Below, in pieces: positions 6,836 through 64,000 of a stretch of 64,000 nt of DNA. The position numbers were made by a program, and so were the translations under genes. Numbering within the stretch: the first letter of the stretch is position 1; each line of letters begins with the position of its first letter. The stretch is from the NCBI GenBank assembly GCA_041749535.1, contig JBGTBE010000042.1, positions 70,702 through 134,701 on the forward strand, written 5' to 3'. The notes under the pieces are model-generated. The model was not told the DNA's origin, did no database searches, and worked only from the letters and a program-made list of their open reading frames with translations. Origin of the DNA: Cryomorpha sp. (GTDB lineage Bacteria > Bacteroidota > Bacteroidia > Flavobacteriales_D > Cryomorphaceae).

Positions 6836-7819
6836 ATGAGAAATTTTATCATCTCCGTTTTATCTGCTTGTTTTTTAGCATCTTGCATTATCGCAAATGC
6901 CCAGAACACTTCTCATCTGGAAGTTTTTACTGAAAATGGTGAGTCATTCATACTTACTGTAAATGGTGTGAGAATGAATCAGGAGCCTCAAAGCAATGTA
7001 AAAGCCACCGGTCTTACTGGTGAATACCAAAGAGTTGGAGTCCAGTTCAGCGACCTTAGTCTAGGTACGGTGAGTCAGAATGTAATGACCGTGCCAGGTA
7101 CAGCGCAGCGCGCAGTGGTAAAGCTTATAAAGAAAGGATACGTGCTAAGGCCTTTTGGAGAGCCCATTGCCCTGGCGAGTGAAATTCAAACACCTACAGT
7201 TACCGTTATAGAATCTTCACCTTTGCAGTCATCTCCTACCCACAGAAATGAAAATATCAAGACCGTAGAATCTACCCCCGACCCTAATTTGGTGTTGACC
7301 ACAGTCACCACTTCTTCCACTGCGAGAAGCGCAGATGAAAACTTGAAAATGGACATCGTAACGAGAGATGTGAAGGTGGGAATCGATGTACGGGTGATTG
7401 ATGGCGAAGAAGGTACGGCCACCATGGTGCACACCAACGAACCTACAAACAATGTACAACGATGCCAAAGCACAGAAGTACTCACAGCGCAAAGTGAACC
7501 CACTCCTGTTGCAACACCTGTGGACGATTGCAGTGCAATGGCTGCCGCTGAATTTTCAAATTTAAAATCATCTTTGGCTTCGAAAAATTTTGAAGACAGC
7601 AAAACCACAACGGCTAAACAAGTGCTTCGAAATACATGCATGAGCGCAAGTCAGATAGTGGAAATAGTTAATTTGCTCACCTACGAGGAGAGTAAACTCG
7701 ATTTCGCGAAAGCGGCATACACGCGCTGTTCTGACCCACAAAACTACTGGAAGCTCAATGATGCTTTTACCTTTGAAACATCCATAGACGAACTCAACGA
7801 ATTCCTTGAAACTAAGTAA
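6836..7819 (+). CDS. Secreted protein with a C-terminal DUF4476-like domain
   Basis: It has a signal peptide (ANAQ cleavage site), a Thr/Ser/Pro/Val-rich linker, and a C-terminal block (FEDSKTTTAKQV...KLDFAKAAY...NYWKLNDAFTFETSIDEL) that matches my memory of DUF4476. It is the first gene of an overlapping four-gene operon. Confidence 0.55.
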   Translation: MRNFIISVLSACFLASCIIANAQNTSHLEVFTENGESFILTVNGVRMNQEPQSNVKATGLTGEYQRVGVQFSDLSLGTVSQNVMTVPGTAQRAVVKLIKKGYVLRPFGEPIALASEIQTPTVTVIESSPLQSSPTHRNENIKTVESTPDPNLVLTTVTTSSTARSADENLKMDIVTRDVKVGIDVRVIDGEEGTATMVHTNEPTNNVQRCQSTEVLTAQSEPTPVATPVDDCSAMAAAEFSNLKSSLASKNFEDSKTTTAKQVLRNTCMSASQIVEIVNLLTYEESKLDFAKAAYTRCSDPQNYWKLNDAFTFETSIDELNEFLETK

Positions 7820-9212
7820 TTACATATTTGCTCCTTCTGCTTCAGCTATGCTGCAACGCAGTGTTCTAGCGTTGTTTGTTGTGTTGCTGCTCGGCGCCTG
7901 CAACGGGTCTAAGTCACTCTATAAACGTGGCAATCAACTCCAACAAGCCGGACTTCACGAGGATGCAGCTGAGTACTACTACAATTCACTGATGCGCAAT
8001 AGGAACAATATTGATGCGCGCATAGCACTTACCGAGGCGGGGCAGCGGTCTTTGAACAATAAACTCGATGAATTCTCTCGAGCCCGCGCAATGGGCGACC
8101 ATCAAAAAGCGGTGAGCAATTTCGAAAGAGCCCAGGCATATAGCCAGAAAGTGGCAAAGCTGGGGGTGAATCTCACCATTCCCGACTATATGGAGCAGGA
8201 TTTTACTGCAAGCAAAGAGGTCGTGATAAAAGATTTGTATGAGAAAGGCAACCAGCTCATGGCTGAAAAACGCTTTGATGAAGCAAATGCAACCTTTAAG
8301 GAAATAGCCAGACTGAACCCTGATTACAAAGACATTAAAGATTTGAAGCGAATTTCGCGCAATGAACCTCTCTATATAGCTGCAACAGGCTACTTTGATT
8401 CCAGGGCTTACCGAAAAGCTTATTATGAATTTGAAAAGATATACAGCGATGATCCAAATTACAAGGACATCGGACTGCTTCGCGAAGAATGCTTGAATCT
8501 GGGGAGATATCCGGTGGCTGTGCTGCCATTTGAGAATGCCACAGGTATAAAAGGTGTCGAAAAGCGGGTGCAGGCATTTGTAATGAATGAGCTCTCCAAT
8601 CTAAACGATCCGTTTCTGCGCATTGTGGAGAGGGACAATATGGACATCATTCTCAAAGAACAGCGACTAAGTTTAAGCGGTGTGGTAGATGAGGGAAGCG
8701 CTGCCCAAGTTGGCAATTTGCTGGGTGCAAAAGCAATTATATCGGGCAATTTGCTCAGCTACAAAACCACTACCGGCAAGATGCGCACAGTGGAGAAAAA
8801 CGGATTTGAATCATACACTGTAAAACTATACAATAGCGCAGAGGACAAGCACTATTTCGAAACGAGATACAAACCAGTGAAATACCGTGAGCATTCTAAT
8901 AAAAATGACGTATCAGTTTCATTTCAGTACCGGGTTGTTTCACTAGAATCAGGCGAAGTACTCTTTTCGCGCATTGTAGAACGCAACATAGAGAGCACAG
9001 TATATTTTGCAACTTATGATGGAGAAGCCTCAAATCTTTTTCCCATGTCTCAGCAGGGCACTGTAGGAACTTCAAGAGATAAAAATGTGTTGCTATCAAT
9101 GCTCAGGGCAAACCGGGAAATCAAATCTATCGATGAACTTTCGGGTGTTGCATTTATGCAAATTGCCACAGAATTGACCCAGGAACTGACTTCAAAATTG
9201 GCGAGCGAATGA
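7806..9212 (+). CDS. Lipoprotein with TPR repeats and a CsgG/LpoB/FlgO-like alpha/beta domain
   Basis: It has the lipobox LLLGAC, and the likely true start is the internal Met near 7848. TPR-like helices sit at the N-terminus. The block VAVLPFENATG...RIVERDNMDIILKEQRLSLSG...GNLLGAKAIISGNLLSY is the hallmark of the CsgG/LpoB/TolB-N fold. Its start overlaps the upstream stop. Confidence 0.6.
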   Translation: MKLSNYIFAPSASAMLQRSVLALFVVLLLGACNGSKSLYKRGNQLQQAGLHEDAAEYYYNSLMRNRNNIDARIALTEAGQRSLNNKLDEFSRARAMGDHQKAVSNFERAQAYSQKVAKLGVNLTIPDYMEQDFTASKEVVIKDLYEKGNQLMAEKRFDEANATFKEIARLNPDYKDIKDLKRISRNEPLYIAATGYFDSRAYRKAYYEFEKIYSDDPNYKDIGLLREECLNLGRYPVAVLPFENATGIKGVEKRVQAFVMNELSNLNDPFLRIVERDNMDIILKEQRLSLSGVVDEGSAAQVGNLLGAKAIISGNLLSYKTTTGKMRTVEKNGFESYTVKLYNSAEDKHYFETRYKPVKYREHSNKNDVSVSFQYRVVSLESGEVLFSRIVERNIESTVYFATYDGEASNLFPMSQQGTVGTSRDKNVLLSMLRANREIKSIDELSGVAFMQIATELTQELTSKLASE

Positions 9213-10579
9213 AGTTCTTTTACCTCAACATTATAGTATTGCTCGCTCTATTCTCTGCCTGTAAAAGCAAAGAGAAAACCGTTGAAACTTCGTATCCCCC
9301 ACCACCGGGTTGGGTAACATCAAGGCCCATATCCAGCATGCATTATGTTGGGATTGGCGTCGCGCAAAAGGCCCCTGCGAGCAATTTTCAAAAGGCTGCA
9401 CGCGACAATGCACTCAGCGATCTCGCTTCTGAAATCAAAGTGAATGTAAACACAAATTCCCTTCTCTATACTTTGGAGCGCGACTACAAAATAGAACAGG
9501 AATTTAAAGAAACGATACGCATAAGTTCCAACCTGAATCTCGAAGACTATGAGGCCATGGATTCTTGGGAAGACGCTACAAGCTATTGGGTATATTACAG
9601 GCTCAACAAAGAAGGTTATGCAGAGCAGCAGAGGGAAAAGCAAGTAGGCGCGCAGGAATTGGCCAAGGATTTTTTAGCAAAAGCCCAAAGTGCAGAAGGC
9701 AGCGCACAGTTTTATACTGCGGCAGATTTGTACCTAAAGGGTTTGCAAGCTCTGGAAATGTACTGGGGTGAAAACAATCAGGTAGACTATCAAGGCAGAA
9801 CTATTCTACTAGACAATGAGCTTTTTGAAGGGGCAAGAAGTCTGATAAGCGATAGCAGAATTACCATTGAGAACGACCTTGAATTGAACTATCAGAACAG
9901 GTTCAGAAGCAGTGCTGAAGTGCGCATCACTTCTTACAAAAATGAAATGCCACTTGAAGGTGTTCCGATTGTATACGAGTATTTCGGAAATTACGGCAGG
10001 TTTAAGGGCAAGGCAAGCACCAATGCCGATGGAAGGTGCCTGATTCCCATCGACGAAGCAGACAGAGAGCGGGTATCGAACAGCATTATCGTATCTATAG
10101 ACACCGACCAACTCTTTCAGCCTTTTCAGAACGATCAGTTTATGAAGAAGCTTACCAGCTCGCTTCGTGGTGCTTCTGTTCAAAAACCAATAGTGCATAA
10201 GGCGCCCACAGTTTATATGATTTCGGAGGAGAAGAACCTTGGAAAAGCTACAGATGGGGTCATCTCGGCAGCGATAATGACCTCGCTGGGCAGGCGCGGT
10301 GTGCAATTTGCCACCAACGAGCAAAGCGCTGATCTTTTGATGAGAATTGAGGCCAACACCCGGTCAGGAAACATCAGTCAGGGATTCGCAACCAGTCTCC
10401 TTACCTTAAATATTGGTGTGGTGGATAACAAAACAAAACAAAATGTGTATAAGGTAAGCCGCAGCGACCTCAAAGGAGTAGATTTAGATTATGAAAGAGC
10501 GGGTATGAAGGCTTATCAAAATTACACCCGCAACATAGAATCTGAGCTCATGAGGAAACTTACAAGTGATTTGTTTTAA
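9209..10579 (+). CDS. Lipoprotein with an LPP20 (FlgP-like) N-terminal domain and a CsgG-like C-terminal domain
   Basis: It has the lipobox LFSAC, the LPP20 motif ARDNALSDLASEIKVNV, and a C-terminal block VQFATNEQSADLLMRIEAN...LTLNIGVVDNKTKQNVY that resembles the CsgG-like fold. Its start overlaps the upstream stop by 4 nt. Confidence 0.55.
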   Translation: MKFFYLNIIVLLALFSACKSKEKTVETSYPPPPGWVTSRPISSMHYVGIGVAQKAPASNFQKAARDNALSDLASEIKVNVNTNSLLYTLERDYKIEQEFKETIRISSNLNLEDYEAMDSWEDATSYWVYYRLNKEGYAEQQREKQVGAQELAKDFLAKAQSAEGSAQFYTAADLYLKGLQALEMYWGENNQVDYQGRTILLDNELFEGARSLISDSRITIENDLELNYQNRFRSSAEVRITSYKNEMPLEGVPIVYEYFGNYGRFKGKASTNADGRCLIPIDEADRERVSNSIIVSIDTDQLFQPFQNDQFMKKLTSSLRGASVQKPIVHKAPTVYMISEEKNLGKATDGVISAAIMTSLGRRGVQFATNEQSADLLMRIEANTRSGNISQGFATSLLTLNIGVVDNKTKQNVYKVSRSDLKGVDLDYERAGMKAYQNYTRNIESELMRKLTSDLF

Positions 10580-10641
10580 GCAACTTAATAATTTGGCATA
10601 ATTTCTGAAACCTAAACCCCGAAGACAAAAACAAAAACAAC

Positions 10642-11232
10642 ATGAAAGCATCAAACATCAACTTAAGAAATTTCATCAGGCCCGCATTAATGATCATTCT
10701 GCTAGCTGCAATTACAACCTCCTGTAAGAAAAACAAAGAAGTAGCTGCTCCTGAAGGAGAAGTATTGATAAACGAATACTGTGCAGGTCCAGAGTTTTTC
10801 AGCAACAATGAATTTTTCCGCTCCAATGGCCTTGGCGAAAGTATGGACCAGGCTACAGCAAAGAAAAAAGCCTACAGCAACGCCCGTGCTGACCTTGCAT
10901 CCGCCATCAACACTACGATAAAAGGCACCATTGACAATTATGTAAACAGCCGTGAGTTTAACAACCGCGAAGAAGTAGAAGAAAGATTCGAAGGACTCAC
11001 CCGTGAGGTGATTGACCAGGAACTGAACGGTACCAAAACCATTTGCCAGAAGGCTGTGAAAGTAACTGAAAACAATAATTATAAATACTATATCGCACTT
11101 GAGTTGAGCGGTCAGGACCTACTGAAAGCAATGAATTCCAGACTTTCGTCTGATGAGCGCATGCGCGTGGACTATGACTACGAAAAGTTTAAAGAGACTT
11201 TCGAGAAAGAAATGGAAAATCTTAAGAAATAA
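10642..11232 (+). CDS. LPP20-family lipoprotein
   Basis: It has a lipobox (ITTSC) and the LPP20 signature NARADLASAINTTIKGTI. It is the last gene of the operon and is followed by a strong terminator. Confidence 0.6.
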   Translation: MKASNINLRNFIRPALMIILLAAITTSCKKNKEVAAPEGEVLINEYCAGPEFFSNNEFFRSNGLGESMDQATAKKKAYSNARADLASAINTTIKGTIDNYVNSREFNNREEVEERFEGLTREVIDQELNGTKTICQKAVKVTENNNYKYYIALELSGQDLLKAMNSRLSSDERMRVDYDYEKFKETFEKEMENLKK

Positions 11233-11349: not shown

Positions 11350-11431
11350 CTTTCACCCAAAATCAAAAAGTCAGCGACCGGCTGTCGCTGCTTTTTTCAT
11401 TCCTTCCTGCGGCTCTGAGCAAGCTCAGCCG
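11350..11431. repeat. Copy 1 of an 80-bp repeat carrying a bidirectional intrinsic-terminator hairpin
   Basis: The sequence ...aaaagtcagcgaccGgctgtcgctgcttttttcattccttcctGcggctctgagcaagctcagccg occurs twice, 150 bp apart (copy 2 begins at 11499). The AGCGAC/GTCGCT stem is flanked by A/T runs on both strands. Confidence 0.7.
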
Positions 11432-11498: not shown

Positions 11499-11599
11499 CC
11501 TTCACTCAAAATTAAAAAGTCAGCGACCTGCTGTCGCTGCTTTTTTCATTCCTTCCTCCGGCTCTGAGCAAGCTCAGCCGCAGGAAGGAATGAAAAAAG
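11499..11599. repeat. Copy 2 of the repeat, with a nested 17-bp perfect inverted repeat (11540-11556 and 11583-11599)
   Basis: cttttttcattccttcc...ggaaggaatgaaaaaag encloses a second hairpin, ggctctgagcaagctcagcc. It lies immediately 3' of the tRNA-His gene on the minus strand. Confidence 0.7.
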
Positions 11600-11636
11600 T
11601 CACCACGCTTTCGCGGGTGACTTTTTGTTTTTGGTG

Positions 11637-11711
11637 GGTGGAAGATGGGTTTCGAACCCACGACCTCCTGAACCACAATCAGGCGCTCTAACCAGCTGAG
11701 CTACAACCACC
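11637..11711 (-). tRNA. tRNA-His (anticodon GTG)
   Basis: The reverse complement reads G(-1)GTGGTTG-TA-GCTCAGCTGGTTAGAGC-G-CCTGA-TTGTGGT-TCAGG-AGGTC-GTGGG-TTCGAAA-CCCAT-CTTCCAC-C. It has the D, anticodon and T arms, a GTG anticodon, and the His-specific G-1:C73 pair. Positions 5:68 and 6:67 of the acceptor stem are T:T mismatches, and no CCA is encoded. Confidence 0.75.
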
Positions 11712-11777
11712 GTATATATTCAGGCGACAAATGTAATTCATTTATCGATTACAGCCATTCGTAAACTTCAACTTTTT

Positions 11778-13259
11778 TCAATTGGCAAGTGAGAACCCTT
11801 CACCGCCTACTACCCTGATTTCTGCATAAAGCAAGTGCGACTTGAGGATGAGATCATTCAATATATTCCTGGCTTCTATGAGTTTCGTTTCACGCGTATT
11901 GACCACAAAGAGACTGCTCTCCCCCAGCGAAAAAAGGGTTTGCTCCCCTTCCAAAAGTTGCGATAACAAGGAGACGTTTGTCTGGTACAGCCTGATCTGG
12001 TCTCTCAGGTTCGACATCCTAACGAGAAGGGCATTCAGTTCAGCATTGAGCTTTGCATTGTTGTCGAGGTACTCCTGGTCTACCAATTCCATTTTCACTT
12101 TGGCCATTCCCAGCTTGCCCCTTGCTTCCCGAATAAGCAGTGGGAAACTTGCTTTCGCTCCGAAAGTGTAGTTATTCTCAAAGAAAGTAGCATCCTGAAA
12201 GTATTCGTCAATTGGAGCGGGACTTACATTTTCGGTAATGATGTTGTACTTCAATTCTATCACAGGCCTGAGGTATTCTGCACTCAGCCTTCGTTCAAAA
12301 TCAAGTTGTGCCCTTTTATTTTGTAGCAAGTTCAATTCGGGGTGGTCAGATGGTATCTGCAGAGGTAATACCGAAAGTCGGGCATCCGAGAGCTCTTCCC
12401 AGATGGGCCTCACTCCAGGAGGAAGATTGACAAGATTTCCTTCAGCATCCCACAGATAAACGTTGGCCATATTTACAGCTTCCACCCATGCAGATTGTGC
12501 ATCCTTGAGTTGGTACAACCGCAAGATTACTTGGGTATACGCTTCTACGGTATCAATGGCAGGCACATCGCCGAACACAAAACTCTCGCGAACCCCTTCA
12601 AACCTGAACCTGGCCAGGTCAAGCGCATCTTCAGCTATTTCAAGGGCACGGTCTGCATTGGACCATTTATAATAAGCGGCGGTAGCTTCCAGGTACAGTT
12701 GGTTGAGCATTATTCTTTGCTCAATTAATCCCATTTCGAAACCCAGCTCGGCCTGCTTTAAAGCAGCCCTGCGGCTATCCATGAGCAAGCCTGCACCGAG
12801 CTGGGCTGTAATGCCAGCATGGAAAAGGCCGCGAGGGGGAACGGTCGCTTCGGGATTCAGGAAGAGGCCTTGGTTGTCTTCGTACCCACCCTGTAGGCTC
12901 AAGCCAAACCATGTGGGAATCTCGACACCAGCTTGCAGCACAGTATAATAATCAGTTTCGCTATACTGTTTCGTCCTGTAGTTACCATATAGTTTAGGAT
13001 CAAAACCACCTCTTGATGAAGTTAGCATATTCTTCGCAAAATCTACACCTAGATTGGCACTCTTCGCAACGGGGTGATACGCTGCCACCCAGTTCAGATA
13101 ACTATCATAACTGAGCAGCGAATCGCTGACATGGTAAAGAGAATCCATCTCTGCAGTGGAATTTCCAACATCTTCGCTGCTATCTGGCAACTCTGAAACT
13201 TGGGCCATACCATACAGGCTAAGGATGAAGGCCAATATATTCAAAGACAATTGCCTCAT
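11778..13259 (-). CDS. TolC-family outer-membrane efflux protein
   Basis: It has a signal peptide (MRQLSLNILAFILSLYGMAQ), is 493 aa, and has the TolC-like duplicated coiled-coil/beta architecture. Its start overlaps the HlyD stop. Confidence 0.75.
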   Translation of the reverse strand: MRQLSLNILAFILSLYGMAQVSELPDSSEDVGNSTAEMDSLYHVSDSLLSYDSYLNWVAAYHPVAKSANLGVDFAKNMLTSSRGGFDPKLYGNYRTKQYSETDYYTVLQAGVEIPTWFGLSLQGGYEDNQGLFLNPEATVPPRGLFHAGITAQLGAGLLMDSRRAALKQAELGFEMGLIEQRIMLNQLYLEATAAYYKWSNADRALEIAEDALDLARFRFEGVRESFVFGDVPAIDTVEAYTQVILRLYQLKDAQSAWVEAVNMANVYLWDAEGNLVNLPPGVRPIWEELSDARLSVLPLQIPSDHPELNLLQNKRAQLDFERRLSAEYLRPVIELKYNIITENVSPAPIDEYFQDATFFENNYTFGAKASFPLLIREARGKLGMAKVKMELVDQEYLDNNAKLNAELNALLVRMSNLRDQIRLYQTNVSLLSQLLEGEQTLFSLGESSLFVVNTRETKLIEARNILNDLILKSHLLYAEIRVVGGEGFSLAN

Positions 13260-14656
13260 TTTATTTGAAGATTATCAATGAATTCTCCTGTTTTTGGATC
13301 TCTTTTCTGATCATTGATATAATAGTCGGGAGGAAATCCATTTAACTGACGCCACAACTCATACCAAAGCGGTACATCTTTGAGGAGCAGTATACCGCTC
13401 GAACCAGTCCCTACGCGCAATTCTCCGGGCCAGGGATTCTCTTTCGTATCAGGTACCACAATAATCCTGTACTTACCATTGGGTGAAATGAAGTTGTCAA
13501 TTGCGAATATTTTCCCTCCAAAAGTCCCGTTGCTCAGTTGGGGCCATCCGGAGAATACGATGGCTGGCCATCCATCGAAGACAAGCCGAACAGTCCTATC
13601 TTTTTCCAATAATGGAAAATTAATAGGCTCCACATACATTTCTACGGCCAAATCATACGTAGCAGGCATGATGCTCACTATTTTGCTTCCTTCCTGTATT
13701 GTTTCGCCAATACCCTGGGAAATGGCCTTGGTGACGTAGCCACGCACGGGGGCCTTAATAAAGTAATTGTCCAGTCGTACCTGATAATTGGAAAGTTGAT
13801 TTTTCATTTTGGCAATCTCCGCCTGTGTGTCATAGAAGGTAGAGATGGCAGTATTTCTTTCGGACTGGGCCTTGGCAAGTTTTTCCTTGTAATCATTTGC
13901 AATTGCACTCAGCTCAATGCCCGCATTGATGAGTTCATTTCTGGATGAGAGGAGTTTATTCTCGGCAGAAATTAACCCAGCTTGGTGCTCTTGCAAAAGC
14001 AGTCGCCTGGCTTCCAAATCGGTAAGAGATTTGAGTCCTTGCTCGTATAGTTCCTCCATTCGCTGAAGTCGCTGGGTGGCGATTTGATAGTCTAGTTTGC
14101 TGGCTTGCACCGCCATGCTGTCTGAGATTACCAGGAGTCTGGTTTGCTCCAATTTATTTTTGGCTTGCTCCAGCTTATTCGCTCGGGTAGAGCTGAGTGC
14201 TTCCATCTGCGAAGTCAGGGCTTCCGCCTTCTGATTATAGTTGATGGCAGCCTGTTGTTTTGCCTCAATTTGTTCAGCGGTGCGTTCCAACAAGGCCGGA
14301 TCAAAATATGCATCTTTCACTTCAGTAATTTTCACGATGGTATCACCTACTTCTACAAAATCTCCTTCTTTTACAAACCACGAATCTATTCGTCCTGGGA
14401 TCACATTCTGTACCGTTTGCGGTCTCTGCTCAGGATACAGTGTTGTTAGCTTTCCAGGAACCCTCATATTCTGGGTCCAGGGCAAAAAAAGAGCAAGTAG
14501 CATGATGAGAAGGATGACCACGAAAATTCTCAAGAGCTTCAAAGGCTTTTCCCTGTCGGCAACAGCTGAGAGCGAGAGGTAATTTCCTAAGTATTGACTT
14601 TGGTCAATTCTGTTATCCGATAAGTTTAGCATGTTCTGATTGTTTAAATGCACCAA
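13256..14656 (-). CDS. HlyD-family membrane-fusion (periplasmic adaptor) protein
   Basis: It has a single N-terminal TM segment (LLRIFVVILLIMLLALF), long coiled-coil segments, and a C-terminal beta-barrel region typical of HlyD/EmrA adaptors. Confidence 0.8.
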   Translation of the reverse strand: MVHLNNQNMLNLSDNRIDQSQYLGNYLSLSAVADREKPLKLLRIFVVILLIMLLALFLPWTQNMRVPGKLTTLYPEQRPQTVQNVIPGRIDSWFVKEGDFVEVGDTIVKITEVKDAYFDPALLERTAEQIEAKQQAAINYNQKAEALTSQMEALSSTRANKLEQAKNKLEQTRLLVISDSMAVQASKLDYQIATQRLQRMEELYEQGLKSLTDLEARRLLLQEHQAGLISAENKLLSSRNELINAGIELSAIANDYKEKLAKAQSERNTAISTFYDTQAEIAKMKNQLSNYQVRLDNYFIKAPVRGYVTKAISQGIGETIQEGSKIVSIMPATYDLAVEMYVEPINFPLLEKDRTVRLVFDGWPAIVFSGWPQLSNGTFGGKIFAIDNFISPNGKYRIIVVPDTKENPWPGELRVGTGSSGILLLKDVPLWYELWRQLNGFPPDYYINDQKRDPKTGEFIDNLQIK

Positions 14657-16331
14657 AGTCTCCCGAGAATATCACCGAGCCATTCTTCAAGAACAGAATA
14701 CGGTCCGCTCTGCTCAAGAATCCTTCGTCACGGGTAGAGGCGATGACCGTCCAATTTTTTGCAAAAACATAATCGTAAAATTTCTTTTCCTCCGCACTAA
14801 GCAGGAAGTTGGTTTCGAGTTCCAGAAGTAGAAGTCGCGGATTGGCAACGATGCTTCGCGCCAGAATTATTTTCTTTGCAAGTGTGCGGGGCAGCTTCAT
14901 TCCTTCAGGAAAAAGCTGGGTGTTCAAACCATCTTCAAGAAAATTAATTTCGCTCAACGCACTGACTACATCCAAGGCCTGGTTTACCATTGTGTCGGTA
15001 ATCTTGCTTTTGCCAAGTGTGATATTGTCTCTTAATGTGCCCCTGAATATTGCTTCCTGCCAAATGTTATCGCCAATATCGCAGCGCAGGTAATCTTTTC
15101 TCAAAGCGTTTATATGAAAACCATTAAAGGAGATACTTCCGTCGTAATCTTCATACACACCTGTGAGCAATTGCATGATGGTGCTCTTGCCCGCCCCCTG
15201 TATGCCAGCAAGCGCAATCTTTTGTCCAGGCTCAGCGCGCATGGAAACCCTGTCGATTACCAGCGGGCTCTTCTCTGAATATCGAAAGCTGAGATTGTTT
15301 ACTTCGATGTCAAAGCCATGCTGCTCAAGCGGAATTTGAGGTGCATTCTGCTTTTCTTCTTCCATTTCAAGGTCTGTAATGGCACCAATTTTTTCGAGAG
15401 ATGTGAGCACGTCGTAAACTGTTTCTAATCCTATAATGAGTTTTTCAATGGAGTTCATTATAAGAATGATGATGATCTCTACAGCCACAAATTGTCCCAG
15501 GCTTATCTCATTCTCTATAAGTAGCAAGCTCCCTGTAATGAGCAGAACCACTATGGAAACTACTTTGAAAGCCACCATGGCTTTATACTGCGTGATAAGT
15601 ATACCAAAGTGTTTGTTTCTAAAATTGAGGTATCCCATTATCAGCCTGTCCACTGTGACTAAGGGAAGGTCAGTGATTCCCGCCAGTTTAAAGGTACCCA
15701 TGGTTCTTGCAAGTTCCTCTAGCCAATGGGCTACTTCATACTTCTTTGAAGATTCATTTATAGAAGTAACTACTCCTTGAGGGCCAGTGAATTTGAACAA
15801 CAGATAAAGCAGAATAAGCACCCCAAGAGAGAAAAAGAAAAATGCAGGGTGGTAAATCGAAATCAAGACCAAACCTAAGCACACCTGCAGGGCAGCCGTT
15901 GGGAAATCTACCAGCAACTTTGCCACTCCTTTTTGCAAATTAACAGTATCAAAGAACTGATTAACCATTTCAGGCGCGTACCTGTTTTGCATGGCTTCAA
16001 GCTTGATCCGAGGAATGCGAACGGCAAGCTCAAAAGACGATTTTGTAAATATTCTTTGTTGAAGTTTCTCTGTCAATGTGAGTTGCCCAATTTGTATAAT
16101 CCCGGATAGTGCGATGCCAACCGCTACTAAAATAGTAAGCAACACCCATGAAGAGGATACCCTGCCGCCCATGATAAAGTTCAAGATGGCTTGGATACCA
16201 AGCGGTAGGGTAAGGACAATAATTCCATTGACCAAAGCAAGAAACAACACGAGGTAGATGAGCTTCCTTTCGGTGCGCAGCAATCTACCCAATCTTTCTA
16301 CAGGTTTATAGTGATTTATTTTGCTGGCCAT
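14613..16331 (-). CDS. ABC exporter (TMD-NBD half-transporter, no C39 peptidase domain) with a degenerate nucleotide-binding domain
   Basis: Six predicted TM helices are followed by an NBD. Walker A is intact (GIQGAGKST) and the Q-loop is present (IWQEAIF). The signature reads LPRTLAKK instead of LSGGQKQR, the Walker B region reads LLLLELET instead of hhhhDEAT, and the H-loop reads ASTRDE. Confidence 0.8.
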   Translation of the reverse strand: MASKINHYKPVERLGRLLRTERKLIYLVLFLALVNGIIVLTLPLGIQAILNFIMGGRVSSSWVLLTILVAVGIALSGIIQIGQLTLTEKLQQRIFTKSSFELAVRIPRIKLEAMQNRYAPEMVNQFFDTVNLQKGVAKLLVDFPTAALQVCLGLVLISIYHPAFFFFSLGVLILLYLLFKFTGPQGVVTSINESSKKYEVAHWLEELARTMGTFKLAGITDLPLVTVDRLIMGYLNFRNKHFGILITQYKAMVAFKVVSIVVLLITGSLLLIENEISLGQFVAVEIIIILIMNSIEKLIIGLETVYDVLTSLEKIGAITDLEMEEEKQNAPQIPLEQHGFDIEVNNLSFRYSEKSPLVIDRVSMRAEPGQKIALAGIQGAGKSTIMQLLTGVYEDYDGSISFNGFHINALRKDYLRCDIGDNIWQEAIFRGTLRDNITLGKSKITDTMVNQALDVVSALSEINFLEDGLNTQLFPEGMKLPRTLAKKIILARSIVANPRLLLLELETNFLLSAEEKKFYDYVFAKNWTVIASTRDEGFLSRADRILFLKNGSVIFSGDFGAFKQSEHAKLIG

Positions 16332-17002
16332 TGATCTATTGTTCTAAATATTAATTGCTTGTAAAACTCACCTCCCACAACTTGATCGTGACCAATGTCG
16401 CTTAGTGAAGGCAAATGCTGTGCGAAGTATATCTGGTCCAGGTGAGATGAAAAAAGCAAGGAAGACAGAGAATGTGCATAAGGATAGTTCGGAGAAAAAT
16501 CTTCGATGAGTGAAGCCACCCGATTACATAAAGACTTGAACTGAACGAAAAGACCTTCTTTATTGTCCATATCTACTTCTTTGGTTAGATATGCCTTCGA
16601 AGATTCTGAAATAATCACCCTCTCGAGCTTTTGTAAGTCAAAAGGAGGGTTGTTCATTTCCCGCAAGTGCCCGGTTATTATTTCTATGGCCCTATTGAGG
16701 CGCAGCTCGGCAGAAGGTAGATTTGCAGTGCCAAACACCAGGCTGTATTCCATCCATCCCCAATACCAGGATGTGTAGTAGAGCAAAAGCTTGTGCTTAT
16801 TCTCAAAATATCGATACAGGGCACTTTCTGTGGTACCAATTTCTGTGGCCAACTTTTTGAAGGTAAATCGCTCCAGTCCAAGGGAATCTATCAAGGGCAA
16901 TGCGTTCAATAGCAATATCTTTCCCAATTCTGAAGTTGATGGATCCTTGAGGTATACCTTCTCGCTTACGGCAATTCTTACGTTTGTGAGTTGTGTAGGC
17001 AT
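16316..17002 (-). CDS. TetR/AcrR-family transcriptional regulator
   Basis: It has an N-terminal HTH (FTFKKLATEIGTTESALYRYFENKHKLL). It is the first gene of the minus-strand operon and overlaps the ABC gene start. Confidence 0.8.
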   Translation of the reverse strand: MPTQLTNVRIAVSEKVYLKDPSTSELGKILLLNALPLIDSLGLERFTFKKLATEIGTTESALYRYFENKHKLLLYYTSWYWGWMEYSLVFGTANLPSAELRLNRAIEIITGHLREMNNPPFDLQKLERVIISESSKAYLTKEVDMDNKEGLFVQFKSLCNRVASLIEDFSPNYPYAHSLSSLLFSSHLDQIYFAQHLPSLSDIGHDQVVGGEFYKQLIFRTIDQWPAK

Positions 17003-17012
17003 TATACTTAAT

Positions 17013-17031
17013 TTGCGTGTAAAACACGCAA
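17013..17031. promoter_or_regulatory. Candidate TetR operator: the perfect palindrome TTGCGTGT-AAA-ACACGCAA
   Basis: It has 8-bp inverted arms and lies 11-29 bp upstream of the tetR start, in the divergent tetR/copA intergenic region. Confidence 0.5.
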
Positions 17032-17143
17032 ATATATAGTATTGTTTACTATTGGCGATAATTAATCTTCAATTCCTTTAACCCACGTCATCAAACCCTC
17101 TCCGAATTCAGAGCCATTAATTAGTATAGCGTATTTTTGCACC

Positions 17144-19240
17144 ATGGCACACAACGAAATCCTGCTGAAGGTAGACGGCATGACCTGCAACAACTGTGCG
17201 GAGGGCATCACAAAATCACTTCGCTCAAAAGGATTTGCTGATGCTGATACGGATTTTATGGAGGGCGAAGTATCGTTCACGCTTGTAGATGGTAAATCTG
17301 CACAACTTGCTATAGATCAAATTGAAGATCTGGGATATTCTGTACGCGGCGCACACTCTGATGAAATTAAAGCGGCAAGCACCATAGAAAAAAAGTTTCT
17401 TTTTGCCTTAGTCTTCACTGTGCCCCTTTTCATGCACATGTTCGCCCCAGATCATTGGTGGATCAACGACCCAATCGTTCAGCTTCTGCTTTGTGTTCCT
17501 GTTTACATCTTGGGATTCACCCACTTCGGAAAATCAGCCTGGGGTTCTATCAAGGCCAGGTATACCAACATGGATGTACTTATTTTCATCGGTACTACTG
17601 CTGCATTTGTGTACAGTTTGGCCGGTACAATATTGTTTTGGGGCACTGATACCGTGCACAGCTATTTATATTTTGAAACCACTGCAACCATCATTACCCT
17701 TGTGTTGCTAGGCAACGTAATGGAGCATCGCAGCATTCAGCAAACATCGCACAGCCTGGGCGAGTTGAGCCGATTGGAGCCCTTGGTTGCAAGGATTGTG
17801 CTGCGGGTCGCAGGCATGGAAAAACTGTTTCTTACCACCCCCAATGTGGTGAAAGAAGGTGATCTACTTCAGGTGAACGAAGGGGACCGATTTCCAACAG
17901 ATGGGAAAGTAATTGAGGGAACAGCACTTGTAGATGAATCGGCTATATCTGGAGAGAGTGCTCCGGTTCAAAAAGAGCTGAATAGTATTGTCTTTTCCGG
18001 AACGGTGATCATCTCGGGAAATGTACGGGTAAGGGCAACAGCTGAAGCAAAAGACTCAACCCTGAAGAAAATTACCGAACTCGTAAAAAAGGCGCGAAAG
18101 GAGCAACCCGATATTCAAAAACTGGGCGACAAAGTGAGCGCGGTATTCGTGCCCTCTGTGCTGATTGTTTCTGTATTGACATTTACAATTTCTTATTTTG
18201 CTTTTGACGTAAGCCTCACCGAATCGCTGATGAATGCCATTGCGGTGCTCGTAATATCATGTCCATGCGCCATGGGACTGGCCACTCCAACTGCTGTGGT
18301 AGTAGGAGTCGGGAGGGCTGCCAAACAGGGTATATTGATAAAGGGTGGTGACACCATTGAGAGATTTGTAAAAGCTGACATCATCATTTTTGACAAAACC
18401 GGAACGCTCACTACCGGTGCTTTTAGTCCTCAAATCATTAAAAACAACATCGGCGGGCGGGCCATTTCACTTATCAAATCTCTTGAGTCAGGATCTTCCC
18501 ATCCCATCGCCAAATCACTTGTGGCACATTGGACAGATACTGTGGGCGAAACACTCACTTCGGTGACCGAATCCAAGGGCAAAGGAATGAGCGGAATTGC
18601 GGAAAATGGAGATGTGATAGCCTTCGGAAAAGCGGCTCCAGGAAATGATGCAGATCTTGCCCTTACCATCAATGGAAAGGAAGAAGCATGGCTCTCCATT
18701 GCCGACAGGATAAAACCCGGTGCCAGGGAAATGATTCACTTCTTTCAGAAAGAGGGTTTGCGCGTAATTCTTCTCTCTGGCGACAAAGCAGAAAAAGTGG
18801 AAGAAGTTGCCCGGCAGCTTGGCATCACAGAATGGTATGGAGATGTGAATCCTGAAGGAAAACTGTATAAGCTAGAACAGTTCTCAGCTAATAATCGAGT
18901 TGCAATGGTGGGCGATGGTGTAAATGATGGGCCAGCGCTCTCAAGAGCACATGTAGGTATTGCGCCGGGTGGTGCTTCATCCCTGGCTTTTGATTCAGCA
19001 AGAATTGTAATCATGAACTCCAATGAAATGGATAGCCTTACAATGGCTTTTAAAACTGCGAAACATACCTACCTCACCATACGTCAAAATCTATTTTGGG
19101 CCTTTGCGTACAATGTAGTAGCAATACCCATAGCTGCATTTGGATTCTTAAACCCAATGATTGCAGCGCTTGCGATGGCTTTCAGTGATGTGGTGGTAAT
19201 AGGAAACTCTCTCAGGCTGAAGAAAAAGAAGCTTGGGTAG
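17144..19240 (+). CDS. copA: Copper-translocating P1B-type ATPase
   Basis: It has an N-terminal HMA domain (GMTCNNCAEGI), a CPC motif in its transmembrane domain (ISCPCAMGLATP), DKTGTLT, and a GDGVNDGPAL hinge. Confidence 0.9.
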   Translation: MAHNEILLKVDGMTCNNCAEGITKSLRSKGFADADTDFMEGEVSFTLVDGKSAQLAIDQIEDLGYSVRGAHSDEIKAASTIEKKFLFALVFTVPLFMHMFAPDHWWINDPIVQLLLCVPVYILGFTHFGKSAWGSIKARYTNMDVLIFIGTTAAFVYSLAGTILFWGTDTVHSYLYFETTATIITLVLLGNVMEHRSIQQTSHSLGELSRLEPLVARIVLRVAGMEKLFLTTPNVVKEGDLLQVNEGDRFPTDGKVIEGTALVDESAISGESAPVQKELNSIVFSGTVIISGNVRVRATAEAKDSTLKKITELVKKARKEQPDIQKLGDKVSAVFVPSVLIVSVLTFTISYFAFDVSLTESLMNAIAVLVISCPCAMGLATPTAVVVGVGRAAKQGILIKGGDTIERFVKADIIIFDKTGTLTTGAFSPQIIKNNIGGRAISLIKSLESGSSHPIAKSLVAHWTDTVGETLTSVTESKGKGMSGIAENGDVIAFGKAAPGNDADLALTINGKEEAWLSIADRIKPGAREMIHFFQKEGLRVILLSGDKAEKVEEVARQLGITEWYGDVNPEGKLYKLEQFSANNRVAMVGDGVNDGPALSRAHVGIAPGGASSLAFDSARIVIMNSNEMDSLTMAFKTAKHTYLTIRQNLFWAFAYNVVAIPIAAFGFLNPMIAALAMAFSDVVVIGNSLRLKKKKLG

Positions 19241-19258
19241 TCTTAAATTTGGAGATTT

Positions 19259-19633
19259 TCAGTTTAAAAATGCAGTGGTTAGTACACCATCAATTGCAAG
19301 CATTCTGGCAATATTCTCAGCATTCTTAACAAGTTTTTCATGGCATTCAGGCAGGTTGCCGTTGATGGATTCAAACTCTCTGAGTTTTTTCTGAACCAGT
19401 TTGCCCGGATGGCTCACTATTTCTATACTGAAAAAGCAAGCAGATTTCATACATTCATCGCAGGACTGAATATGTTGAATGAGCCTCTTTCTCAACGTTT
19501 GCTTTTCCGCTTTTCCGAAATATACAGGATTGTAATTACAATCGAAGAGGGTATACACTCCAAAATCTTCAGGCGCTATACTCTTGGCATTCTCCATATC
19601 CAAAAAGTACATTTGTGTAGGCCTGGAAGTCAT
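19259..19633 (-). CDS. Small stand-alone GIY-YIG-like domain protein. The probable start is the internal Met, and the track ORF extends to 19696.
   Basis: GVYTLFDCNYNPVYFGKAE fits the GIY-x10-YIG motif. Downstream there is a conserved Arg (LRKRLIQH), Glu (FFSIEIVSH) and Asn (ESINGN). Additional Cys/His pairs are present (CDEC, PECH). Confidence 0.45.
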   Translation of the reverse strand: MTSRPTQMYFLDMENAKSIAPEDFGVYTLFDCNYNPVYFGKAEKQTLRKRLIQHIQSCDECMKSACFFSIEIVSHPGKLVQKKLREFESINGNLPECHEKLVKNAENIARMLAIDGVLTTAFLN

Positions 19634-19845
19634 AATTGTCTGTTTGCGTTTTCTAGACGAAGGTAGTATGCAAGGGTTGCCAACCTTGTGAAGCAAACTT
19701 CAATTAAATGCTATCAAATTGTTACTGGTCTAAAGCACCGGGAAGATTATAAAGTAAAGGATCAAATAAAAGTTTGCACTGCTTTTCACGAAGGTGCCCG
19801 TCTCAGAAGTGATGGTGATTTATTTGAAATTAAAAAAGGGTATTC

Positions 19846-20547
19846 TCAAGGAATACATTGTTGCTCCGCAGCAACTACATGGCCTATTTCAGGGCTGAGA
19901 AATGGTATGCCAAGGCCAAGACCGCGGATGATGAATAAGATGGCTATTATCGTCGCCAAAACAGGGGCAAGACTTTTGAGTTTGTATCTCCATTTTGCAC
20001 CCAGGGCACTTCCCGAAAGGGCTACCAAAAGCAGTGCAGGAGCTGTGCCGAGACCAAACAAAGCCATGAACAATGCTCCGGCTATAGGTTCGTAGCTAAC
20101 CAAGGCACCAGCAAGTGCAAGGTACACAAGACCACAGGGCAACAAGCCATTAAAGAATCCCAGACCCAAGAGCGCCGTAGCGCGTTGACTTTTAAGGAAT
20201 CGGGCCATAAATCCGAGTACGTTGCTTTGCATGGCTGCCACTTTATTGCCGAGCTTGCTGAGGATCGAGAACTTTGGCAACCATATAAAGGCCAGCATGA
20301 ATAAACCTGCGAAAATTGAGAGTCCTTGTTGAAAACCTGTAGTGCTAAGTCCGTAACCGAGTGTGCCGAACAAAAACCCAAGAATAGCATAGGCTCCAAT
20401 GCGGCCTGCATGGTACAAGGAGTAGGCACCAATCTTATGAAGCGCATTGCCTTCACCTACTGGGACTGCAAGGGCAATGGGTCCACACATACCCACACAA
20501 TGCATGCTACCGGCAATACCAAGGCCGAGTGCGGGGAGAATCATCAT
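19846..20547 (-). CDS. DsbD_2 / TauE-SafE-like membrane protein (cbb3-associated)
   Basis: It is a polytopic membrane protein with the HCxxMCGP motif (MHCVGMCGPI) and a later LPCG motif. It is the last gene of the cco cluster. Confidence 0.6.
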   Translation of the reverse strand: MMILPALGLGIAGSMHCVGMCGPIALAVPVGEGNALHKIGAYSLYHAGRIGAYAILGFLFGTLGYGLSTTGFQQGLSIFAGLFMLAFIWLPKFSILSKLGNKVAAMQSNVLGFMARFLKSQRATALLGLGFFNGLLPCGLVYLALAGALVSYEPIAGALFMALFGLGTAPALLLVALSGSALGAKWRYKLKSLAPVLATIIAILFIIRGLGLGIPFLSPEIGHVVAAEQQCIP

Positions 20548-20981
20548 AGCACAATCTCCTTTTCAGTGTAGTAATCTTCACCATCCATGGAGAACCTCAC
20601 TCCTACTTTATAGCGGCCATGCTCACCACGAGGGGCGATTGCCATGCTCTCACTTGCATCCAATTTAAGTTCGTGCAATTCGTCAAGGTCTGCATTGTCA
20701 GGCTTGTATAGCGTCACTTCCCCAACAACAGCATATATATCAGAGAGGCCTGAAAACTCGATATAGACGACTTTATCAGCAGTTCTTATATCAACACTGA
20801 AGGAGGCTGCCTGCATATTGTGCCAGGCATCTTTCTTACCTTGAAAAGCAAGTTCCTTGGTATAGTATTCATCTGTAACCAGCTCATGGTCCATTTGCAT
20901 GCTGAAATAAAGCATGCTCAGCATGAAGATCATGAAGGCTACGTAAACAATGGCGATTTTATGTCCGAAGTGGAGTTTCAT
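20544..20981 (-). CDS. ccoH: CcoH/FixH-like protein. The start is taken at the internal MKLHFGH because the longer ORF overlaps ccoG.
   Basis: It has a single TM segment (IAIVYVAFMIFMLSML), a periplasmic beta-rich domain, and a position directly after ccoG. Confidence 0.55.
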   Translation of the reverse strand: MKLHFGHKIAIVYVAFMIFMLSMLYFSMQMDHELVTDEYYTKELAFQGKKDAWHNMQAASFSVDIRTADKVVYIEFSGLSDIYAVVGEVTLYKPDNADLDELHELKLDASESMAIAPRGEHGRYKVGVRFSMDGEDYYTEKEIVL

Positions 20982-20991
20982 TTTCGATGAA

Positions 20992-22407
20992 TTAAAGTGG
21001 ACCTGTGATTCGAATTTTGACCTTTTCAAGGAGTTTTCCACCCTCATCGTATACGCCAAGGCTGGTTTGTACTTTCCCCAGCTTAAAGCGCTCTGATGCC
21101 GCCGAAAGAAAAAATGCCCCTTCAGCCACAGCTTGTTTTGAGAGAGCAGGTTGTTTCCCCACAAGGTTTATCCTGTACCCTTCTTCCAAGGGCACAAGTG
21201 AGATTTTCATATCGCGGTTCGATTTATTAATGATCTTATAGTTGTACAGATTGCTAATGGTCCCATCATCGTTCTTCTGATAGAGCATTCCCGGTGTACG
21301 AAGTATACTCATTTCCACTTCAGTGCGCAAAACGAGAAGTGTACTTACCACACCGATAATCACAGCCAGAACCACTGTATAAGCCTTGGCTCTTGATGTT
21401 AATTTGAATGGCTTTCGTGTTTCTATCTGCTCCTCACTGCTGTATCTTATTAGGCCTAAGGGGAGCCCAACTGCATCCATCATTTCGTCGCAGGCATCGA
21501 TGCATGCAGTACAATTCACGCATTCCAGCTGTGTGCCATTTCGAATATCTATACCGGTGGGGCACACCTGCACACAATGCCCACAGTCTATGCAATCTCC
21601 TTTGCTTGCAGCTGAGCGGTCTTCGCCTTTCTTGATTTTGGCGCGCTCTTCACCCCTTACCCTGTCATAGGCTACCACCACAGAATTTCTGTCCAGCAAT
21701 ACGCTTTGTAACCTACCATATGGGCAAACATTGGTACATACTTGTTCACGGAAAAATGCAAACACACCGTAGAAAATCCCGGAAAAAACCAATATGGAAG
21801 CAAGACCTGCTATATGTTGCGAAGGAGGAGAAATGATGATTTCTGTCAAAGCCTCTGTGCCGATAATGTACGCCAAAAAAGTATTTGCAATCAGAAATGA
21901 AACAGTGAAGAAGATGAGGTGTTTCGAAACCCGTTTGAGAATTTTCTCTGTGGTCCACCCCTCTCTTTTAAGCTTCATCTGCTGCTTCCAATCACCATCG
22001 ATCCAATATTCAATTTTTCGGAAAACACCTTCCATGAAAATAGTTTGGGGACAAACCCATCCACAAAAAAGCCTGCCATACACTACTGTAAATAGCCCGA
22101 TAAATATGACGAGTGAGATAGCCATAAGGCCGAAAATGAAGAAATCTTGTGGCCAAAATATCTTTCCAAAGATGACGAATTTTCGCTCTATCAAATTGAA
22201 CATCACGAGATGCTCGCCACTGATTCTAATAAATGGAGCGGAGAATAGGAAAACGAGTAAAAAAAGGTTTACCCACTTTCTTGCTTTGGTGTACTTTCCT
22301 TTGGGCTTTTTGGCGAATATCCACTTGCGCTTCCCTGATGCATCAAGGGTTGAGAGTTTATCTCGAAAACCTTCAGGGCTCTCAGGTGTCGTTTGGGGAG
22401 AATTCAT
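20992..22407 (-). CDS. ccoG: Cytochrome c oxidase accessory protein CcoG (4Fe-4S ferredoxin-type)
   Basis: It has two ferredoxin-like Cys clusters (CIDCGHCVQVCPTG and CVNCTACIDACD), N-terminal TM helices, and a length of 471 aa. Confidence 0.85.
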   Translation of the reverse strand: MNSPQTTPESPEGFRDKLSTLDASGKRKWIFAKKPKGKYTKARKWVNLFLLVFLFSAPFIRISGEHLVMFNLIERKFVIFGKIFWPQDFFIFGLMAISLVIFIGLFTVVYGRLFCGWVCPQTIFMEGVFRKIEYWIDGDWKQQMKLKREGWTTEKILKRVSKHLIFFTVSFLIANTFLAYIIGTEALTEIIISPPSQHIAGLASILVFSGIFYGVFAFFREQVCTNVCPYGRLQSVLLDRNSVVVAYDRVRGEERAKIKKGEDRSAASKGDCIDCGHCVQVCPTGIDIRNGTQLECVNCTACIDACDEMMDAVGLPLGLIRYSSEEQIETRKPFKLTSRAKAYTVVLAVIIGVVSTLLVLRTEVEMSILRTPGMLYQKNDDGTISNLYNYKIINKSNRDMKISLVPLEEGYRINLVGKQPALSKQAVAEGAFFLSAASERFKLGKVQTSLGVYDEGGKLLEKVKIRITGPL

Positions 22408-23600: not shown

Positions 23601-23800
23601 GGCATTGGGTTTTGTGAAGTGGAGGCAGTAGATTCATCATCGAGGGGCAGCGCACCAACTGTTTCTATATAAGGTTTGCTCAATCGCGTCACATACACGA
23701 GCAGCCCTATGAAAAATCCGAAAAATATAACAAGCGATATCAGCGGAAAAATCTCTATTCCGACAATGGTATCCATATTGTGTTTAATGAATTTTAGCAT
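23597..23800 (-). CDS. ccoQ: CcoQ/FixQ-like small membrane protein
   Basis: It is 67 aa with a single TM helix, and lies between ccoNO and ccoP with overlapping stop/start codons. Confidence 0.5.
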   Translation of the reverse strand: MLKFIKHNMDTIVGIEIFPLISLVIFFGFFIGLLVYVTRLSKPYIETVGALPLDDESTASTSQNPMP

Positions 23801-23806
23801 GGCTTT

Positions 23807-62607: not shown

Positions 62608-62970
62608 ACAGGATAAAACCACTTCCACTGTCGGCAGACTCCGTTGCATATCTATATAATAATCAAATACTTTAAGCCCTTTAGATGATTCGTTGACCAA
62701 TTTTAACTACTTGTGCATCCGCACACTTTTGCCACCATAGATTTCCGCAAGCCCTGGTATTTATTGAAAAAGATTTCAAAACAATAAGATGGCTGTATTC
62801 TGGCCTATAAGAAGGGTTTGTGTTCCGGGTACTCCAAAGTTAAATTGCAGTTTACCCAGGGAATTTTGCACTGCCGTAATCCGCAAAGAATTATTCGGTT
62901 AGATTTGGGTGTGACAAAGATTTTTTGAGAAGGCATCCCGATGTATTTGAACTTCCTAAGAAACTAAATT

Positions 62971-63912: not shown

Positions 63913-64000
63913 CGCGGGTTTCCGCTCCAAAATACAGCCTTTTTAAAAATAATCCCCCTTCCTTTAAAAGAGGACTGTTTGAGTTGAAAGATTTTTGATC

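Follow-up and report, generated by a model that had tools for sequence, protein, structure and literature searches.

A TetR-headed ABC/HlyD/TolC-type operon of Cryomorpha sp. and a Bacteroidota family of ABC-fold proteins with conserved loss of ATPase motifs

The operon and its gene products

The DNA considered here, denoted as the window, comprises 64,000 nucleotides of Cryomorpha sp. (Bacteroidota; assembly GCA_041749535.1, contig JBGTBE010000042.1, positions 70,702 to 134,701 of the forward strand) and harbors on its minus strand a four-gene operon whose only ATP-binding cassette (ABC) protein carries a degenerate nucleotide-binding domain (NBD). In the order of transcription, the genes encode a TetR-family regulator (228 aa; 16316-17002; Pfam TetR_N, PF00440, E = 7e-8), an ABC half-transporter (572 aa; 14613-16331), a membrane-fusion (periplasmic adaptor) protein of the HlyD type (466 aa; 13256-14656; Pfam HlyD_3 and Biotin_lipoyl_2), and an outer-membrane factor of the TolC type (493 aa; 11778-13259; Pfam OEP, E = 7.9e-22, two repeats). 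Neighboring genes overlap at every junction, by 16 nt (tetR/ABC), 44 nt (ABC/HlyD), and 4 nt (HlyD/OEP); the coordinates of the open reading frames (ORFs) agree with the tetR-ABC-hlyD-tolC order described in the first-pass annotation of this DNA. The adaptor probably starts at an ATG at position 14632, as suggested by its homologues, which would shorten the ABC/HlyD overlap to 20 nt.

The ABC protein is a half-transporter of the type IV exporter group of the ABC superfamily, with a six-helix transmembrane domain (TMD) followed by an NBD fold. Pfam detects ABC_membrane (PF00664) with 34.1 bits and ABC_tran (PF00005) with 49.8 bits, the latter being an unusually low score. No Peptidase_C39 match was obtained, in agreement with the TMD-NBD protein without a peptidase domain that had been described, and the N-terminus begins only ~20 residues ahead of the first transmembrane helix (TM1). 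The nearest NCBIfam models are those of NHLP, LssB, HlyB, and bacteriocin exporters, with all scores far under the curated cutoffs (TIGR01193, 134.9 vs. 523.85 bits; TIGR03796, 168 vs. 853.3; type_I_sec_HlyB, 138.4 vs. 725.55). The best model for the adaptor, type_I_hlyD, likewise stays under its cutoff (90.2 vs. 208.65 bits), as does type_I_sec_TolC for the outer-membrane factor (16.6 vs. 225.15 bits). An AlphaFold2 (AF2) model of the ABC protein built with 51 homologues (pLDDT 82.7) folds as is normal for a type IV exporter, and its NBD fold is intact (pLDDT ~83-93 in this region). In Foldseek comparisons, the model reaches TM-scores of 0.84-0.91 to PCAT1, HlyB, TM287/288, and TmrAB.

Degeneracy of the NBD and constraint on the TMD

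The positions of the NBD motifs were assigned with phmmer by aligning the protein to three P-glycoprotein-type structures, each of which contributed its two NBDs. The six alignments are in agreement with each other, and all motif coordinates (minus strand throughout) were checked by translation. The Walker A motif (P-loop) is kept as GIQGAGKST (residues 376-384; 15180-15206) and fits the consensus GxxGxGK[ST]; the aromatic residue of the A-loop, Tyr351, is also kept. Three further motifs had been read by eye as substituted, and the HMM alignments confirm each of them. LPRTLAKK (residues 480-487; 14871-14894) stands opposite the signature LSGGQKQR. The Walker B remnant RLLLLELE (residues 499-506; 14814-14837), of which LLLLELE at 500-506 is aligned with LLLDEA, has Glu504 in place of Asp and Leu505 in place of the catalytic Glu. 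The switch His of the H-loop is replaced by Thr533 (14733-14735). In addition, the D-loop SALD is reduced to NFLLS (14796-14810; aligned as NF-LS). The Q-loop, which had been listed among the intact motifs, could not be upheld as such. In the ungapped alignment, the canonical Gln lies opposite Trp424, with Gln425 one position off (15057-15062), and neither column is conserved as Gln among relatives. This motif is probably degenerate as well, or at best ambiguous.

The possibility that canonical motifs are hidden elsewhere in the protein was ruled out, as the six NBD alignments agree; among relatives, only four SGGQ strings occur, all of them in the periplasmic loop between TM1 and TM2. Neither a canonical LSGGQ nor a catalytic Glu was found elsewhere in the window protein. 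Judged from these alignments, the protein forms no consensus ATP site as a homodimer. The same holds for any heterodimer, because the half site formed by Walker B and H-loop and the one formed by the signature are both degenerate on one chain. From what is established for ABC enzymes, neither hydrolysis nor the ATP-sandwich dimer should be possible once the catalytic Glu, the linchpin His, and the signature are gone. A missing catalytic Glu has been called the hallmark of a degenerate site (PMC7544095). A canonical ATPase cycle is very probably not performed by this ABC protein.

The degeneracy is ancestral and conserved and does not reflect decay of the gene. Cryomorphaceae, Cyclobacteriaceae, and other Flavobacteriales contribute the 120 best database homologues (46-82% identity), none of which has LSGGQ or the H-loop His; Gly376, Gly381, and Lys382 of Walker A are invariant among them. 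A genome scan revealed relatives at no fewer than 590 Bacteroidota species loci, encoded by intact ORFs of the same length; the best 80 of these at least 590 loci include Flavobacterium psychrophilum, Polaribacter, Maribacter, Winogradskyella, and Salegentibacter as well as Saprospiraceae, Lewinella, Pontibacter, Chryseolinea, and Ohtaekwangia. The substitutions in the NBD motifs are common to all of the 82 genome loci that were examined for motifs and gene neighborhood. An HMM search run exhaustively over 1.84 billion cluster representatives yielded 150 top family members (50% clustering), which together with the window protein give a set of 151 sequences. None of these has the H-loop His, the column being mostly Ser or Thr, and none has the signature motif or SGGQ at that position. 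Many relatives harbor Asp or Glu at or beside the catalytic position (ED, EEE). The Walker A Lys is missing in 38 of the 151 representatives (e.g. P0225, P0229, P0240, and P0263), some of which show no recognizable P-loop. All the same, these sequences carry the TM6 motif GQFVA[SA]E described below. Nucleotide binding seems to be dispensable in parts of the family, as far as the motifs tell.

Selection on the gene was estimated as the pairwise ratio of nonsynonymous to synonymous substitution rates (dN/dS; NG86 method) in close pairs; since dS is near saturation, the resulting values of ~0.01-0.2 for the NBD and ~0.02-0.07 for the TMD are approximate. In most pairs, the evolutionary rate of the NBD is about double that of the TMD, yet the NBD is clearly under purifying selection.

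ABC transporters usually combine a conserved NBD with a variable TMD. In this family, conservation is inverted relative to that pattern, with the constraint concentrated in the TMD. This domain (residues 1-330; 15342-16331, minus strand), with its six TM helices, is the most conserved part of the protein, with a mean column conservation of 0.71 vs. 0.53 for the NBD. Among the 151 sequences, 50 columns are at least 93% conserved, 44 in the TMD and six in the NBD. The latter correspond to Gly376, Gly398, Asn436, Gly468, Arg492, and Pro498; none of them is hydrolytic, and Gly376 is the first glycine of the P-loop. The most conserved motif of the family is GQFVA[SA]E in TM6, present in the window protein as GQFVAVE (residues 279-285; 15477-15497, minus strand) and ending in Glu285 (codon 15477-15479). 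This position is occupied by Glu in 148 of the 151 sequences, by Asp in two, and by Gln in one. Only one further charge is conserved within the hydrophobic TM stretches, namely Lys256 in TM5 (15564-15566, minus strand; 143/151). At the position equivalent to Glu285, the peptidase-containing ABC transporters (PCATs) have Asn in their TM6 motif GQL[IL]x[YF]N, and P-glycoprotein has a TM6 Phe.

A profile of the TMD alone, searched against the Protein Data Bank (PDB), matched ComA (5.6e-8) and PCAT1 (1.6e-5) best, with HlyB being marginal (E = 0.17). Between families, the pattern of conservation is the reverse of that within the family: in phmmer searches of PDB, the TMD alone gave no matches, while the NBD alone did. 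About 43% of the representatives (65/150; P0124-P0259) are long forms with an extra N-terminal domain of ~150-190 aa, e.g. at the loci L071 (6521-8704) and L080 (6524-8698); the window protein is a short form. The extra domain has no conserved Cys and no sequence match in Pfam or PDB. When one long form was modeled with AF2 (pLDDT 91), Foldseek aligned the model to full-length PCAT1 and HlyB over ~680-740 columns, an alignment length that suggests a non-catalytic domain of the C39-like kind. Together with the TMD profile result, this indicates that exporters of the PCAT/type 1 secretion system (T1SS) kind are the closest relatives of the family, which probably descends from them.

The core of the first-pass reading, a sole ABC subunit with degenerate motifs, is borne out by these data. 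It had missed the phylum-wide family, the loss of the D-loop and probably of the Q-loop, the absence of the Walker A Lys from one quarter of the family, and the constraint on the TMD with its TM6 Glu. Public annotations of the relatives read "peptidase domain-containing ABC transporter" or "ATP-binding cassette domain-containing protein", and no curated NCBIfam model covers the family. Two complete operons with ~43% identity to the window ABC protein are found in metagenome-assembled genomes labeled as Akkermansia (L022) and Halioglobus (L050). Their presence in non-Bacteroidota bins reflects either mis-binning or horizontal transfer.

Regulator, candidate operator, and genomic surroundings

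A repeat search detected an inverted repeat with arms of 10 bp and 100% complementarity, ATTTGCGTGT-n3-ACACGCAAAT (17011-17033), which is located 8 nt ahead of the start codon (ATG) of tetR and represents a candidate TetR operator. Its left arm is overlapped by TATATTTG (17029-17036, minus strand), a match to the Bacteroidota -7 consensus TAnnTTTG. This match counts for little, as TAnnTTTG shows no enrichment in the window (45 found vs. 49.8 expected). For Bacteroidota, a sigma-70 promoter scan is uninformative. A tetR orthologue is found directly upstream on the same strand at 48 of the 82 loci and within 7 kb at 56. In the Cryomorphaceae relatives L002-L004, the corresponding site upstream of tetR reads TTTGCGA-n7-TCGCAAA. 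In distant Flavobacteriia, Saprospiria, and Cytophagia, TAATAGTA-n1-TACTATTA recurs in near-identical form upstream of tetR (L038, L046, L049, L061, L065, L067, L074, L078, and L080-L082). The operator specificity thus seems to have diverged between clades, with the window clade using the TTTGCG...CGCAAA type, as far as can be read from these repeats.

The genes for the ABC protein, the adaptor, and the outer-membrane factor occur in the same order across the 82 loci, with orthologues at 82, 81, and 78 of them, respectively. The OEP gene is missing at four loci; at three of these (L012, L028, and L048) the sequence ends there, and at L034 none was detected. A second exporter gene beside the operon was found at none of the 82 loci, where only six unrelated NBD genes appear, kilobases away. 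Likewise, tblastn found no other NBD in the window, in agreement with the earlier statement that the operon has a sole ABC gene. Clustering of the flanking ORFs of the 82 loci revealed no conserved neighbors besides the four operon genes. The earlier impression that no substrate gene lies nearby also stands: the small ORFs in the flanking intergenic DNA are implausible as cargo, no double-glycine cargo gene is located near the operon, and no candidate for an RTX-type or other secreted-protein substrate was found at the window locus.

Downstream of the OEP gene, Rfam detects only a tRNA-His(GTG) gene (11636-11710, minus strand), 68 nt beyond the OEP stop. No terminator was found between the two genes. 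The tRNA gene has its own TAcaTTTG box upstream (11728-11735) and is followed by a hairpin with a T-run terminator (11603-11616). Further on, two direct repeats of 80 nt (11352-11431 and 11501-11580) are 95% identical, each with the GC-rich hairpin CAGCGAC-n5-GTCGCTG and flanking T-runs on both strands; a partial inverted copy (11576-11634) abuts the tRNA gene. These repeats look like intergenic elements of the repetitive extragenic palindrome or miniature inverted-repeat transposable element type (REP/MITE-like) or like bidirectional terminators. Beyond them, a plus-strand run of predicted lipoprotein or secretion-associated genes (6836-11232) encodes a DUF4476 protein, a tetratricopeptide repeat (TPR) protein with a CsgG-like part (468 aa), an LPP20-domain protein (456 aa), and a 196-aa protein without Pfam match.

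On the other side, a cbb3-oxidase cluster (17144-25939) lies divergent from tetR; the flanks of the operon are not conserved with it in other genomes. The cluster comprises a P-type ATPase with an HMA domain (17144-19240, plus strand), a GIY-YIG-like ORF (19259-19696), DsbD_2 (19846-20547, minus), a CcoG-like Fer4/FixG_C protein (20992-22407, minus), FixP (22404-23600, minus), and a fused CcoN-CcoO protein of 710 aa (23807-25939, minus). The last 2 kb of the window (62001-64000) have a G+C content of 0.376, compared with ~0.44-0.51 in the rest.

Possible mechanism and comparison with known systems

Taken together, the locus may encode a tripartite exporter under repression by TetR, with ion coupling via Glu285 instead of ATP hydrolysis, a tentative proposal that in our view falls somewhat short of being probable. 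In such an exporter, an inner-membrane homodimer of the ABC-fold protein would join the HlyD-type adaptor and the TolC-type channel to span the envelope, and export would be powered by protons (or cations) via Glu285, the near-invariant TM6 residue that lies in the translocation pathway. In this case, the NBD may have survived as a structural clamp or as a nucleotide-sensing regulatory domain. TetR would hold the 23-bp palindrome over the promoter and let go on binding a small-molecule substrate or inducer. Thermodynamics set the frame for this proposal: binding and release of a nucleotide without hydrolysis add no net energy, and therefore the substrate would have to move downhill or its export would have to be coupled to an ion gradient. 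Ion coupling via Glu285 is favored because of the family-wide invariants in the translocation pathway and because a quarter of the family lacks the P-loop lysine. Considered by itself, proton or cation coupling of the pump is possible, and we put it slightly lower than, or at most level with, the proposal as a whole. The control by TetR and the lack of a cargo gene favor a small-molecule substrate, while the PCAT ancestry keeps a peptide possible. Should the coupling exist, a PCAT-derived lineage may have switched from ATP-driven to ion-motive-force-driven export and retained a vestigial NBD; this evolutionary scenario is regarded as rather unlikely at present.

Several points weigh against the proposed ion-coupled exporter. 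ATP binding, the lack of hydrolysis, and ion coupling are all deduced from sequence. Glu285 may serve substrate binding or helix packing instead, because it replaces an Asn that is already a conserved polar residue in PCATs. In the clade of the window protein, Walker A is kept in 120 of 120 homologues, so nucleotide binding would still matter there, and this conservation fits an ATP-gated mechanism equally well. Weak, non-canonical hydrolysis is possible, given the ED and EEE sequences near the catalytic position of relatives. TetR is missing from about one third of the family loci. Finally, the search for a partner was confined to the 64-kb window and the flanks of the 82 loci.

An ATP-gated facilitator or a very slow ATPase is unlikely, although it is the likeliest of the alternatives. 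The P-loop would bind ATP, and binding or rare non-canonical hydrolysis (via Glu504/Glu506 or the ED/EE pairs of relatives) would switch the TMDs, so that the protein acts as a nucleotide-gated conduit through which the substrate runs down its own gradient into the duct formed by adaptor and TolC-type channel. The invariant GxxGxGK[ST] of the 120 closest homologues argues for this mechanism, as do the Walker B carboxylate Glu504, which could hold Mg2+, the acidic residue common at 505 or 506, and the purifying selection on the NBD. There is also a precedent in TmrAB, for which a single-molecule study reports that ATP binding alone can power a translocation step (PMC13040083). On the other hand, an ATP-sandwich dimer is unlikely without signature and D-loop, and a cycle without hydrolysis gives no net energy. 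Moreover, one quarter of the family lacks the Walker A Lys, and some members even the P-loop, with the TMD motifs kept; ATP is therefore not essential to the core mechanism of the family. A non-transport role, in which the ABC-fold protein serves as a scaffold, assembly platform, or sensor for the adaptor and the outer-membrane channel while another component translocates or energizes, appears improbable. The lost catalytic motifs would be in line with it, and strongly conserved residues of the periplasmic loops and the TMD could contact the adaptor; however, the translocation pathway is a standard one that is lined in TM5 and TM6 by polar and charged residues of near-invariant identity, and at the 82 loci the operon stands by itself, without a fourth structural gene that is conserved and could act as the transporter. 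The gate-or-scaffold idea of the first-pass annotation is nonetheless compatible with all results, and its non-hydrolyzing option is the one that survives among the three explanations it had offered.

The other two fare worse. A partner borrowed from elsewhere in the genome, i.e. an obligate heterodimer with a canonical ABC half-transporter that supplies the active site, is even less probable than the scaffold. Heterodimers such as TM287/288, TmrAB, and MsRv1273c/72c are the classical setting in which a degenerate site is tolerated (PMC12038006), and the partner search was limited to the window and the flanks of the 82 loci. Such partners are normally adjacent genes, though; no exporter neighbors the operon at the 82 loci, and each composite site would retain one dead half, both halves being dead on one chain. 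A decaying gene, or an alignment artefact that masks canonical motifs, has next to no probability. The low ABC_tran score might be read in this sense, but the ORFs are intact and of the same length at the 590 or more species loci, dN/dS is far below 1, the substitutions are shared by the orthologues throughout the family, the six NBD alignments agree with SGGQ confined to the TM1-TM2 loop, and the NBD is modeled as an intact fold. Decay is refuted by dN/dS, distribution, and shared substitutions.

ABC exporters are defined by ATP hydrolysis, and to our knowledge degenerate sites are known only as one of two in heterodimers, always together with one consensus site. The family appears to break this rule, being a single-gene, presumably homodimeric exporter without any consensus site; the exception spans a phylum under strong purifying selection, and it is now the TMD rather than the NBD that bears the constraint. 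An ABC-fold protein combined with an adaptor and a TolC-type channel is a known architecture; what appears to be new is that a single-gene exporter has lost its ATPase altogether and that this loss is conserved. In the literature, the coverage of which was incomplete, neither a family of this kind nor a TetR/ABC/HlyD/TolC system of Bacteroidota was found to be described, and nothing relevant was found on ABC pseudoenzymes. A 2021 review of tripartite pumps and T1SSs, in its accessible part, mentions degenerate sites only for heterodimers. The family offers a natural test case for the question whether ion gradients can drive the membrane domains of ABC exporters, a dispute that stems from work on LmrA and MsbA, and it bears on how secondary transporters such as SbmA could arise from ABC ancestors. 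If true, an ion-driven lineage would be a living intermediate between ABC exporters and ABC-fold secondary transporters without NBD (e.g. SbmA) and would form the first tripartite adaptor/TolC pump built on an ion-driven ABC-fold component. There are practical aspects as well: members of the family are routinely given the erroneous names "peptidase domain-containing ABC transporter" or "ATP-binding protein", and the family is present in fish pathogens and in abundant marine Flavobacteriia, where it may export a metabolite, a peptide, or a toxin.

Among known systems, the bacteriocin exporters of the PCAT/AMS (ABC transporter maturation and secretion) group, e.g. ComA and PCAT1, are nearest by TMD profile and fold (TM-score up to 0.90). 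The window protein is likewise a half-transporter that is expected to dimerize, and Gram-negative PCAT systems (CvaB-CvaA-TolC) also use a HlyD-type adaptor and a TolC-type channel. It differs from PCATs in having neither a C39 domain nor a double-glycine cargo gene nearby, in the loss of the catalytic NBD motifs, in the replacement of the TM6 Asn by Glu throughout its family, and in the attached TetR regulator. The type 1 secretion system HlyB-HlyD-TolC shares the trio of ABC, membrane-fusion, and outer-membrane components encoded together, and HlyB resembles the window protein with a TM-score of 0.89. HlyB, however, has canonical Walker B, signature, and H-loop motifs, with His662 being essential, whereas the window ABC protein is devoid of them.

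The heterodimeric exporters that were compared (TM287/288, TmrAB, BmrCD, LmrCD, PatAB, and MsRv1273c/72c) share the type IV fold with the window protein as well as the loss of catalytic Glu and H-loop His at one site, and they keep nucleotide binding at the degenerate site. In these systems, adjacent genes encode two different chains, each of which bears one of the degenerate halves, and one consensus site is always kept. The operon of the window has one gene instead, with both degenerate halves on the same chain.

A working model for the window system, although no claim of membership, is provided by SbmA/BacA, the SbmA-like peptide transporters (SLiPT), and by the truncated membrane domain of LmrA (LmrA-MD). 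Both have an ABC-exporter-type TMD that operates without ATP hydrolysis, is driven by a proton or ion gradient, and contains functionally important carboxylates in the pathway (PMC13316013, PMC6155054); SbmA in particular has the ABC-TMD fold, lacks an NBD, and uses the proton gradient as its driving force (PMC13316013). Proton-coupled transport has also been described for MsbA (PMC4979069). SbmA differs in that its NBD is wholly lost and in that it is an importer, stands alone, and goes back to a YddA-like rather than a PCAT-like ancestor, and LmrA-MD is an engineered truncation. Members of the window family keep a full, vestigial NBD and belong to a tripartite export operon, and their ion coupling is a proposal only.

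With respect to regulation, the locus resembles operons of the TetR/TetA and AcrR/AcrAB type. The regulator with its N-terminal TetR helix-turn-helix (HTH) heads the operon, and the palindrome overlaps the likely promoter. TetR-regulated efflux operons of this kind serve a pump of the major facilitator superfamily (MFS) or the resistance-nodulation-division (RND) type, and they differ from the family described here, in which about one third of the loci lack the regulator and the system under its control is built on a PCAT-like ABC fold.

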